DNA from: an uncultured Rickettsiales bacterium
GTDB taxonomy: Bacteria > Pseudomonadota > Alphaproteobacteria > Rickettsiales > UBA8987
Direction of reading: 5' to 3'
NCBI GenBank assembly: GCA_964445765.1
Contig: CAYULD010000001.1
Span: forward strand, 516,537 to 580,536
Length of the DNA: 64,000 nt
The notes under the pieces are model-generated. The model saw only the letters and a list, made by a program, of their open reading frames with translations. It ran no database searches and was not told where the DNA came from. How positions within the stretch are numbered: the first letter of the stretch is position 1; each line of letters opens with the position of its first letter. Position numbers and translations under genes: made by a program. Below are positions 38,385 to 40,732 of this stretch, in pieces.

Positions 38385-38689
38385 ATAAAATTAAAAATAT
38401 TACTGACGGATTTTTTATAGCACTTCAAAAAGCTATAAATATTTTTTAGACTATATTAGTAAAACTTTAGAACTATCAAGAATATTTTTGAAAAGAGATA
38501 CATTTATAAAAGCATAAATATGAGCTTCAAATATTGCGACAAGGCACTTGATGAATTGTATTGGATTGCGTTAAAATATTTTAATCACTCTAATATTTTT
38601 TGCGTTTTTGCTGGCTCAAAATTAGAAATATAACCTTTGATGGTCTTGCGGTAAAATTTTATTATCAATCAATTTTAAGGTTATTTTCT

Positions 38690-38773
38690 TGGTTGCGGGG
38701 GCTGGATTCAAACCACTGAAGCCAAACAAAATAATAAAATTATTTTGTAGCTAAAGCCTTCAGGTTATGAGCC
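38690..38773 (-). pseudogene. tRNA-fMet 3'-half remnant (duplicate of 40656-40702)
   Basis: 38690-38715 matches 40656-40681 at 25 of 26 positions (acceptor 3' strand plus T arm). 38757-38773 is identical to 40686-40702 (anticodon arm with CAT). A 41-nt hairpin filler replaces 4 nt, and no matching 5' half is present. Confidence 0.65.
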
Positions 38774-39004
38774 TTGAAAAGCTAAAAGCCAGCAACTTAC
38801 CACAACAGATAATAAGGCTATAATTCAATTGGTTATATGATTTTTATTGTTTTTACTTATTCTCAATTATTGTCATTTTTTAACCTCAATTGTCCCAAAA
38901 GTGTCCCAAGAAAATTTTAATTTCTTAATCTTTTATTAACCATATGTGTATATATTAACTTTCAATATGAGGTAAAATTTACTAAACCTAATAGTGTGCT
39001 AAAA

Positions 39005-40327
39005 ATGAAAGAAAATGATTATTTGCCAGAATATAATCTTGTTGTAAGAGCTTACAGAGAAATAAAAGAGCATTTTGGCGAAGCAAAGGACAATTATTTT
39101 AGTTATTTACTGCCAGTAAGCTATGCTTCTGATTCTGGCGAACAAGTTCCTATTGGAGTGAATGAATTCCAAGGTATTAGTCAGATAGGAAGCTATAAAT
39201 TATTTGGAGCTTTCGTAAAAATTTGTGAAGCAAACCGAAACAAAAAGAATGGAGAGCAAAAAATTAACGTTGCTGCTAGTGCTGGAAACCACGCCCAAGG
39301 TGTTGCTCTTGCTTGTAATAAACTTGGGCTTCAAGGTGTTATATTTATGCCAGAAGCAACACCAATTATCAAAATAATAGGAACTTTAAGACACGGCGGC
39401 GAAAATGTAACAGAGCTTGAAAAGCTAGAAGACCAAGGTGCAACGGCAGAAAAAATAAAACAATATTGTAATGATAATTTTGATAAATTTAAAAATGTTA
39501 AAGTTAGAATTACAGGTAAAAACTTTGACGAAGCTTCAGCAGCAGCTAAAGAATTTGCATCTTCACCAGATAAAGAATTTATTCCGCCATTTGATAGCAA
39601 ATATGTAATAGCCGCAGCTGGCACATGGGGTCTAAATATAATAGAGAAACTTTTGCAGTATAACTATAATTCACCAAATTATGAGAAGCAAGAAGATTTT
39701 ACTACTCTTGATGACCTTATGAAAAAACACCCACTTGATTGGGACGATGTAGTAAAAAATAAGATAAGCCAATTATATGGCGAAGGCGGAAAGGATTTAT
39801 CTCTAAGCTTGCCAGTAGGTGGTGGCGGTCTTGCTGCTGGTGTTTCATTAGTAATAAGAAAATTAGCCCCTAAGGCGGAGCTTATTGCTGTTTCACTAGA
39901 AGGAACACCAAGCTTACCAGAATCAATTATCAAAGATGAAGTTGTTAAAACACCTCCTGTGCCATTATTATATAAAGATGGTTCAATTATTCCAGGCGGA
40001 ACAAAAGTGGCAAGAATAGGTGATACAACTTTTGAAGTTATAAAAAGAAATTTTGATAAAGTAGTTACTGTAGGACATGATGCTTTTTTTGCAGCTACAG
40101 CAAATAATCTTGTTAATCGTGAATCAATGAGTGAACCTCAAGCAGGAGCAACCCAAGTTGCCTCAGCTAATATAGGCTCAAGACCAGTTAGAATATCTTT
40201 CAAGAGTGGTGAAAATTTATCAGATAGGGAGATAGAAATAATTACAAAAAATTATCCCGCCCCCAGAGTTCAAGATGTTGTAAGGCAAGGAGCCATCATT
40301 GAAACTGTAATCTTAAAACAATTTTGA
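39005..40327 (+). CDS. Divergent PLP-dependent threonine/serine dehydratase-like enzyme (tryptophan synthase beta superfamily)
   Basis: Contains GSYKLFGA (compare SFKxRGA with the PLP lysine), ASAGNHAQGVALACNKLGLQGVIFMPEATP, and the glycine loop LPVGGGGLAAGVS. It carries long insertions and shows no obvious ACT domain. ATG at 39005 is preferred over GTG at 38996. Confidence 0.6.
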   Translation: MKENDYLPEYNLVVRAYREIKEHFGEAKDNYFSYLLPVSYASDSGEQVPIGVNEFQGISQIGSYKLFGAFVKICEANRNKKNGEQKINVAASAGNHAQGVALACNKLGLQGVIFMPEATPIIKIIGTLRHGGENVTELEKLEDQGATAEKIKQYCNDNFDKFKNVKVRITGKNFDEASAAAKEFASSPDKEFIPPFDSKYVIAAAGTWGLNIIEKLLQYNYNSPNYEKQEDFTTLDDLMKKHPLDWDDVVKNKISQLYGEGGKDLSLSLPVGGGGLAAGVSLVIRKLAPKAELIAVSLEGTPSLPESIIKDEVVKTPPVPLLYKDGSIIPGGTKVARIGDTTFEVIKRNFDKVVTVGHDAFFAATANNLVNRESMSEPQAGATQVASANIGSRPVRISFKSGENLSDREIEIITKNYPAPRVQDVVRQGAIIETVILKQF

Positions 40328-40655
40328 TAGGTTTTGATATATTAGTTAAACTTTAGACTATACTTGTAATAGCTTTTTTAACCCATAAAATAAAGAATTA
40401 TCAGTCTTATTAAGTCTCTTATTTGATTTCTAAACCTACTTTATACCCTAAGCCCAAACCTACTAAATAGCTCATTATCAAACTTTTCATCATATTCATC
40501 TATTTTTCAATTAACTTATTGTATTTACTCCAACGCATATATTTTGGTTTTCTGAAGTATTTATCTTCACCACCCAGCCTAACTAAGAATGTCCCAAAAT
40601 TGTCCCTTTTTGTAGGTTCGAGTTTATGCAAAATTGGTAAAAGCGGCTGTTTAGT

Positions 40656-40732
40656 TGGTTGCGGGGGCTGGATTCGAACCAACGACCTTCAGGTTATGAG
40701 CCTGACGAGCTACCGGGCTGCTCTACCCCGCG
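40656..40732 (-). tRNA. Initiator tRNA-fMet (anticodon CAU)
   Basis: The reverse complement is CGCGGGGTAGAGCAGCCCGGTAGCTCGTCAGGCTCATAACCTGAAGGTCGTTGGTTCGAATCCAGCCCCCGCAACCA. It is nearly collinear with E. coli tRNA-fMet, including the C1-A72 mismatch. Confidence 0.92.

Follow-up and report, generated by a model that had tools for sequence, protein, structure and literature searches.

A probable decayed integrative islet at an apparently relocated initiator tRNA gene in the MoxR-Bat operon of an uncultured Rickettsiales bacterium

We analysed a 64-kb stretch of contig CAYULD010000001.1 (hereafter the window) from an uncultured Rickettsiales bacterium, in which the MoxR-Bat (Bacteroides aerotolerance-type) operon is interrupted between the DUF4381 gene and batA. 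The interrupting DNA holds an intact initiator tRNA gene (tRNA-fMet), a partial copy of that gene and, in the 1.9-kb islet between the two, a gene for a pyridoxal phosphate (PLP) enzyme. Our results indicate that this is probably a lineage-specific 2.6-kb insertion in the operon, formed by relocation of the tRNA gene and then by integration of a small element through a tyrosine integrase, the gene for which (int) has since been lost. As a scar of site-specific integration it is nothing out of the ordinary: decayed integrative islets targeted to tRNA genes are well known. Judged from its sequence, the islet today would be an immobile or at best trans-mobilisable remnant, similar to a cis-mobilizable element (CIME).

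The initiator tRNA and its partial copy

The original prediction had placed an intact tRNA-fMet gene on the minus strand, and this was borne out by ARAGORN and Rfam (Table 1) and by two initiator hallmarks that can be read from the sequence, a C1xA72 mismatch and an A11:U24 pair. Its anticodon stem (UCAGG/CCUGA) carries two, not three, G-C pairs adjoining the loop; fewer G-C pairs in the initiator anticodon stem are known in some alphaproteobacteria and organelles. The gene has the same orientation as moxR-DUF58-DUF4381. The remnant lies 3′ of it, 1.9 kb away and in the same orientation, and is made of two blocks split by a 41-nt stretch, as had been proposed. The T-arm/acceptor block (38690-38715) shares 25 of 26 positions with 40656-40681; no such match is expected by chance, and the sole mismatch falls on the conserved T-loop C56. 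The core, or anticodon stem-loop block (38757-38774), matches 40686-40703 at all 18 positions (0.03 expected) and is one base longer than first described.

The 41-nt interruption stands in place of four nucleotides of the variable loop and 5′ T-stem and contains a 10-bp AT hairpin (ACAAAATAAT/ATTATTTTGT). It occurs once in the window, and a dispersed palindromic element was rejected on this ground. We also considered whether the remnant is a whole tRNA gene that decayed into a pseudogene, and rejected this since the match to the 5′ half of the tRNA is not significant (P ~0.3-0.5). The remnant is therefore a copy of the 3′ part only. With C56 mutated and half of the T-stem missing, it cannot work as a tRNA. 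A functional tRNA-like element, located between the PLP gene and batA and acting as a processing signal, an insulator or a small RNA, would explain why the core and the acceptor block are better kept than the neighbouring sequence. However, in addition to the mutated T-loop and the replaced half of the T-stem, the remnant has no 5′ half, is called by neither ARAGORN nor Rfam, has no conserved counterpart elsewhere among the loci compared, and lies in a region with a predicted fold no more stable than that of shuffled sequences (z=-0.8). We thus regard a function of this kind as extremely unlikely.

The identity between remnant and tRNA begins at (GTC)AGGCTCATAACC, in the anticodon stem. In a scan of viral contigs the anticodon/T-arm pattern was matched at least 120 times, and about 45 of these matches are 3′-only copies of tRNA-fMet that have unrelated sequence upstream and start at (GTC)AGGCTCATAACC as in the window. 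The fragment boundary is the recognised anticodon-loop crossover sublocation. Together with the attachment (att) site geometry presented below, this viral boundary backs the earlier proposal that the repeated tRNA 3′ end is an integration scar or decayed islet.

Repeats in the insertion and the arm sites of an integrase family

Two further direct repeats, named A and B, had been described in this region, with the caveat that the similarities might vanish under alignment statistics. Under such statistics the tRNA blocks and repeat A are significant, whereas repeat B is at chance level by score. Repeat B (16 of 17 positions, confirmed; 0.08 expected in the whole window) is a tandem hexamer, TGTCCC-N5-TGTCCC; of the seven TGTCCC hexamers in the window, four fall in its two sites, B1 and B2. 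Since its alignment score alone does not exceed chance (P=0.21), its significance rests on composition and external evidence. The exact 17-mer was found at 40 loci (27 distinct, 37-64% GC) in viral contigs and its reversed-sequence control at five; additional TGTCCC copies are frequent at the viral loci, at 11-bp phase or inverted. A Pfam Phage_integrase gene stands beside the 17-mer at 12 of the 27 distinct loci vs none of the five control loci, and the integrase-adjoining copies typically have the int start on one side and a tRNA gene, with its 3′ end, on the other. Literature on the TGTCCC arm motif yielded nothing specific.

Accompanied by additional copies in direct or inverted orientation, the motif was also seen in other settings in phage contigs (examples are L172 2516-2532 and L177 5692-5708): in some it stands just upstream of terminase genes, in others it adjoins genes for an RNA polymerase or for lysins. 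Integrase-proximal sites are therefore not its only location. A Pho-box-like regulator site was considered as well and set aside, given the integrase association and the attP geometry.

Four of the B-adjoining integrases (from contigs L183, L197, L206 and L210) form one family with 35-84% full-length identity. They share the N-terminus MATIEQRxNGTWRAKIRKKGY, match Pfam Phage_integrase and, weakly, Int_N, and belong to PHROG 1. A search with an alignment of the four (alignment A2, distinct from the repeat copy A2 in Table 1) returned 42 loci, and arm sites were counted for the 16 homologues whose identity was 35% or higher and whose upstream sequence spanned 100 nt or more. All 16 have a tandem TGTCCC pair upstream of int; relative to the int start it lies at -63/-52 in 13 and is 16-34 nt off that position in three. 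Where a family member is integrated, a complete tRNA-Cys or tRNA-Val lies 75-84 nt beyond the pair; overall, the pair and the tRNA 3′ end are 37-84 nt apart, and the distance from the pair, which is upstream, to int is 47 nt. Copies without a complete tRNA represent free attP sites. The one in L183 reads pair, 37 nt, 48-nt 3′ part of tRNA-Asn (8521-8568), 105 nt, pair, and the one in L210 reads pair, 73 nt, 48-nt 3′ part of tRNA-Cys (8470-8517), 105 nt, pair. The pair-to-pair distance in the family is 207-247 nt.

We then compared these sites with the islet circularised at its cores, which reads B2, 49 nt, 48-nt 3′ part of tRNA-fMet, 116 nt, B1. The pair-to-pair distance is then 230 nt, and the orientations are those of the family attP. 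Because the joined cores reproduce the family layout, B1 and B2 are explained by one integration, and their reading as the putative P and P′ arms of a single attP is well supported. The earlier argument that more than one event took place, drawn from the different order of repeat B relative to the tRNA copies at the two ends, did not hold: a single integration puts B2 in attL and B1 in attR.

Repeat A was confirmed and proved longer than reported, with 27 identities over 32 columns and two gaps between 38445-38476 and 40332-40361. Its local score of 40 was equalled or exceeded in 0.3% of dinucleotide shuffles (P ~0.003). The core of the repeat is not dispersed within the window, and its six matches in viral contigs, all AT-rich, are at chance level. 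The sequences between A and the tRNA blocks (38477-38689 vs 40362-40655) are unrelated (z ~0), so the repeats are isolated blocks and not a decayed segmental duplication. No significant inverted repeat was detected between the flanks. We also considered a tandem array with an older, related element behind the remnant. This would need a B site there, and the candidate for a decayed third one, TGGCTCAAAATTAGAAA at 38612 (62 nt past the remnant), is at chance level (P=0.19).

The repeats could also have arisen without any integrase, when slippage or unequal crossing-over led to a local duplication or illegitimate recombination, with the PLP gene gained separately and A and B as leftovers. Such a process would fit three direct-repeat pairs with similar spacing (1.7-1.97 kb), the absence of an integrase, the resemblance of the 41-nt quasi-palindrome to a template-switch product, and repeat A, which integration leaves unaccounted for. 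However, a segmental duplication would give graded similarity where we see unrelated sequence between the repeats; the fragment boundary is the canonical anticodon-loop att boundary; and B1 and B2 match a family-specific attP in position, spacing and orientation. Taken together, we consider an origin by duplication improbable.

History of the insertion

BatA homologues form a graded identity series, and we read the contigs of seven relatives: L044 (79% BatA identity), L050 (66%), L049 (62%), L045 (61%), L046 (54%), L239 (53%) and L241 (48%). The closest of them, L044, is a Rickettsiales metagenome-assembled genome (MAG); in a separate scan of genome contigs with BatA, relatives were all at or below 44% identity. 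The gene order moxR-DUF58-DUF4381-batA-batB-batD is kept, with the putA and uvrC flanks also kept in most relatives, and the gap between DUF4381 and batA is 0-146 nt in all seven. No tRNA was found in the relatives' loci that were scanned for tRNAs; for L239 and L241 the adjacency was taken from gene tables. Thus the islet and the tRNA are both missing from this locus in the seven relatives, which indicates that the whole 2.6 kb including the tRNA is an insertion in the window's lineage. The claim that the islet splits a Bat cluster stands as far as the interruption is concerned, since the genes are contiguous in the relatives; what splits it is the 2.6-kb block with the tRNA, not the 1.9-kb islet alone. 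The expected empty site, with a single tRNA-fMet between the genes, was not seen in any of the seven.

The opposite history, in which tRNA-fMet and the PLP gene were originally part of the cluster and the relatives lost them, gains some room from the distance to the nearest sampled relative, at 79% BatA identity. It would need precise independent deletions in seven lineages, each remaking a near-overlapping DUF4381/batA junction, and one relative carries its PLP homologue elsewhere. The original prediction had named this layout as one that would count against integration, and none of the seven relatives has it. Distant Bat clusters are contiguous too. An ancestral arrangement is thus scarcely credible.

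Two side observations concern the relatives' loci. In L044, uvrC was called as two open reading frames (ORFs) of 211 and 398 aa (15011-16849), which suggests a frameshift or pseudogene. In L050 a 161-aa gene on the opposite strand (1537-2022) follows batA where batB is expected, and the cluster there appears to be truncated or rearranged.

We propose that the insertion was built in two layers. In the first, which we infer from the relatives, an initiator tRNA-Met gene with about 550 nt of flank would have come between DUF4381 and batA. The second layer is well supported: a small integrative element would have entered the relocated tRNA at the anticodon-loop sublocation via a tyrosine integrase. 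The 48-nt tRNA 3′ part carried by the element would have restored the tRNA gene (attL, 40656-40732), and the original 3′ part would have been pushed 1.9 kb downstream (attR, 38690-38774). B2 and B1, just inside each end, would then be the element's P′ and P arm-type sites, and the integrase gene, expected beside B2, would later have been deleted.

The original prediction had described the bracketed segment as holding one PLP-enzyme gene and no integrase, and we agree. The PLP gene is the single sizeable ORF of the islet (Pfam PALP, E=1e-33), and its product is a divergent IlvA-like enzyme of fold type II. The best matches in the Protein Data Bank (PDB) are to catalytic domains of IlvA (E=1e-28), the NCBIfam IlvA models match far under their cutoffs, and PHROG gave no match. 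In the translation there are two insertions, an ACT-like regulatory domain is lacking, and both the lysine motif SYK and the GGGGL loop are kept. Among 5.8 billion proteins only two close homologues were found, with 62% and 57% identity (P0002 in L003 and P0003 in L006, both from related alphaproteobacterial MAGs), and all others are at about 30%. The clade thus contains three sequences above 50% identity, including the islet protein. Element signatures were not found around the homologues in the relatives.

Several points weigh against this history. Neither the islet nor the 64-kb window contains an integrase or a remnant of one, as searched by tblastn with 12 integrases and by a local integrase hidden Markov model (HMM), and the position where int is expected (from about 40543 downward, minus strand) is noncoding. 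The inverted third hexamer of the family (GGGACA) does not occur in the insertion either; on both counts the islet element is degenerate. With no integrase left, the family link is drawn from two 17-nt sites together with their geometry, and the family examples that we found target tRNA-Cys, tRNA-Val and tRNA-Asn in DNA of 55-64% GC, with none at tRNA-fMet or in a low-GC host. Repeat A is significant, yet lies outside what an integration predicts. Since the relatives have no tRNA at the site, an extra relocation step is required. The base composition of the islet shows no anomaly, and one relative has its PLP homologue between queF and dnaE, an ordinary chromosomal context with neither a tRNA nor a TGTCCC signature. 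Finally, contigs from two independent Logan assemblies match both insertion junctions at 100% identity but end within the tRNA, at 40705 and 40708, and leave the join in the middle of the tRNA uncovered.

This last point raises the question of an assembly chimera, in which DUF4381-tRNA(5′) and tRNA(3′)-PLP-remnant-batA would have been joined wrongly at the conserved tRNA. A metagenome scan with the 48-nt tRNA 3′ half found it identical in 15 full tRNA-fMet genes (L217-L231) on contigs of low GC (35-41%), with differing D-arms and unrelated contexts; their loci show neither synteny to the window nor islands. Identical 3′ halves in many low-GC organisms would give branches in an assembly graph and in this way could favour a mis-join. 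By the same token, a break of the Logan contigs within the tRNA is expected, because many low-GC organisms combine this 3′ half with different 5′ halves. Moreover, the two halves adjoin DUF4381 and batA, which are neighbours in all seven relatives, and this is not expected of a random mis-join. Even a chimera would leave tRNA sequence beside a Bat gene in each half, and the window belongs to a 687-kb contig. We therefore regard a mis-assembly as very unlikely.

We identified neither a convincing target-site duplication nor convincing terminal inverted repeats at the edges of the insertion, and its noncoding parts had no match among the other loci compared. The 246-nt spacer upstream of the tRNA is covered at 100% identity by the Logan contigs L237 and L238. 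A 15-nt direct repeat, AAWTGATTGATAATA (minus strand, 14/15), occurs at 40970-40984, spanning the DUF4381 stop codon, and at 38660-38674, 16 nt past the 3′ end of the remnant. It was rejected as a junction microhomology: the position is suggestive, but the length is at chance level in AT-rich DNA. The features of the locus are listed in Table 1.

Table 1. Coordinates of the MoxR-Bat genes and of the features within the insertion (positions in the window)
Feature	Position	Strand	Remarks
uvrC	31817-33667		intact, 616 aa
batD	33677-35593	minus	
batB	35600-37366	minus	
batA	37380-38384	minus	Pfam VWA; NCBIfam BatA E=3e-53; first gene past insertion
Whole insertion, 2,594 bp	38385-40978		between DUF4381 stop and batA start
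Flank from remnant to batA, 305 nt	38385-38689		lineage-specific; no counterpart in relatives
A1	38445-38476	plus	overlaps minus-strand sigma-70-like site
Remnant, T-arm/acceptor block	38690-38715	minus	25/26 identical to tRNA
Interruption, 41 nt	38716-38756		quasi-palindrome where tRNA has ACGA in variable loop and 5′ T-stem
Remnant, core (anticodon stem-loop block)	38757-38774	minus	18/18 identical to tRNA; putative attR
B1, TGTCCCAAAAGTGTCCC	38891-38907	plus	P-arm-like hexamer pair, 116 nt islet-ward of remnant core
PLP-enzyme gene (cargo)	39005-40327	plus	440 aa; alternative GTG start 38996; opposite to Bat genes
A2	40332-40361	plus	begins 5 nt past PLP gene stop codon
Noncoding stretch, 228 nt	40362-40589		expected site of int start (minus strand, ~47 nt left of B2)
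B2, TGTCCCAAAATTGTCCC	40590-40606	plus	P′-arm-like hexamer pair, 49 nt from tRNA 3′ end
tRNA-Met(CAT), intact	40656-40732	minus	ARAGORN; Rfam tRNA 62.5 bits; putative regenerated target, attL
Duplicated tRNA 3′ part, 48 nt (anticodon stem to CCA)	40656-40703	minus	core identity block 40686-40703
Spacer upstream of tRNA, 246 nt	40733-40978		no ORF; presumably contains tRNA promoter
DUF4381 gene	40979-41464	minus	Pfam DUF4381 E=2e-28; last gene before insertion
DUF58 gene	41473-42354	minus	
moxR	42372-43325	minus	
putA	43326-46412	plus	divergent, abuts moxR start

Elsewhere in the window, 23S and 5S rRNA genes were identified on the minus strand (2937-5988), and Rfam found no 16S rRNA gene in the 64 kb. 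A 16S gene unlinked from 23S/5S is typical of Rickettsiales, which agrees with the nearest BatA relative being a Rickettsiales MAG. A pair of small genes at about 47960-48320 (seen via L237, genes 1172-1526) lies beside an ABC-ATPase gene; one member has weak matches to BrnA/CopG antitoxins, and the pair is missing from this place in L044. It may be a lineage-specific toxin-antitoxin insertion.

Comparison with known elements and consequences for the operon

In the Islander collection of tRNA-targeted islands, a 3′ fragment was reported for 3,760 of 3,919 islands and an anticodon-centred attP for 2,083 (PMC4383910). The islet resembles these islands in that an intact tRNA gene and a same-orientation 3′ fragment downstream mark its ends, the fragment starts in the anticodon stem (class A, with an anticodon-centred attP), the cargo is foreign and the block is missing in relatives. 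It differs in carrying no integrase gene, which the Islander filter demands, in its size of 1.9 kb, far below that of a typical island, and in its target tRNA, which relatives lack at this locus. CIMEs are elements that have kept attL and attR and lost the genes for integration and transfer (PMC6323972). Likewise, at the sequence level, the islet has att cores identical over 18 nt and both arm-site pairs, and it holds neither a recombinase nor transfer genes, its single ORF being the PLP enzyme. Unlike the islet, which is known from sequence alone, CIMEs have been described mainly as streptococcal ICE (integrative and conjugative element) derivatives, mobilised by ICE accretion.

The att sites of the integrase family of L183, L197, L206 and L210 share with the islet the position of the tandem pair, the 48-nt tRNA part and the orientation, and, beyond the tRNA part, a second pair at a distance of about 105-116 nt. 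In contrast to the family, the islet lacks int and the inverted third hexamer, and it sits at tRNA-fMet in DNA of 30% GC (the approximate GC content of the window), vs tRNA-Cys, tRNA-Val and tRNA-Asn at 55-64% GC.

With identical cores and both arm pairs retained, the islet could also be a still-functional cassette without an integrase, and tRNA-fMet with its att site a portable landing pad. We see this as possible but unlikely. If it were true, a TGTCCC-arm integrase encoded in the genome or by an incoming element could excise and reintegrate the islet, a rare PLP enzyme would be shuttled among Rickettsiales-like bacteria, and an essential initiator tRNA could relocate along with its parasite.

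The operon itself retains all six genes in canonical order and orientation, with putA and uvrC at its flanks as in the relatives, but its contiguity is broken between DUF4381 and batA by the 2,594 bp with a convergent gene. Because the PLP gene is convergent with moxR-DUF58-DUF4381, read-through into batA is unlikely, and we infer that co-transcription of the operon is broken. In that case batA-batB-batD would depend on a new promoter. A candidate, putative by its match to the consensus, is a sigma-70-like minus-strand sequence (TTGATA-18-TATAGT, 38479 to 38450) that overlaps A1 and lies some 70 nt upstream of batA.

With the integration scar being of a familiar kind, the only unusual point is the relocated initiator tRNA, and the current understanding of tRNA-targeted integration is unchanged. 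The islet would illustrate that an orphan element can be assigned to an integrase family by arm-site geometry alone, after its integrase has been lost. For the bacterium, whose alphaproteobacterial genome is AT-rich and reduced, the locus would be a clean case of a conserved stress operon, MoxR-Bat, being broken and rewired.

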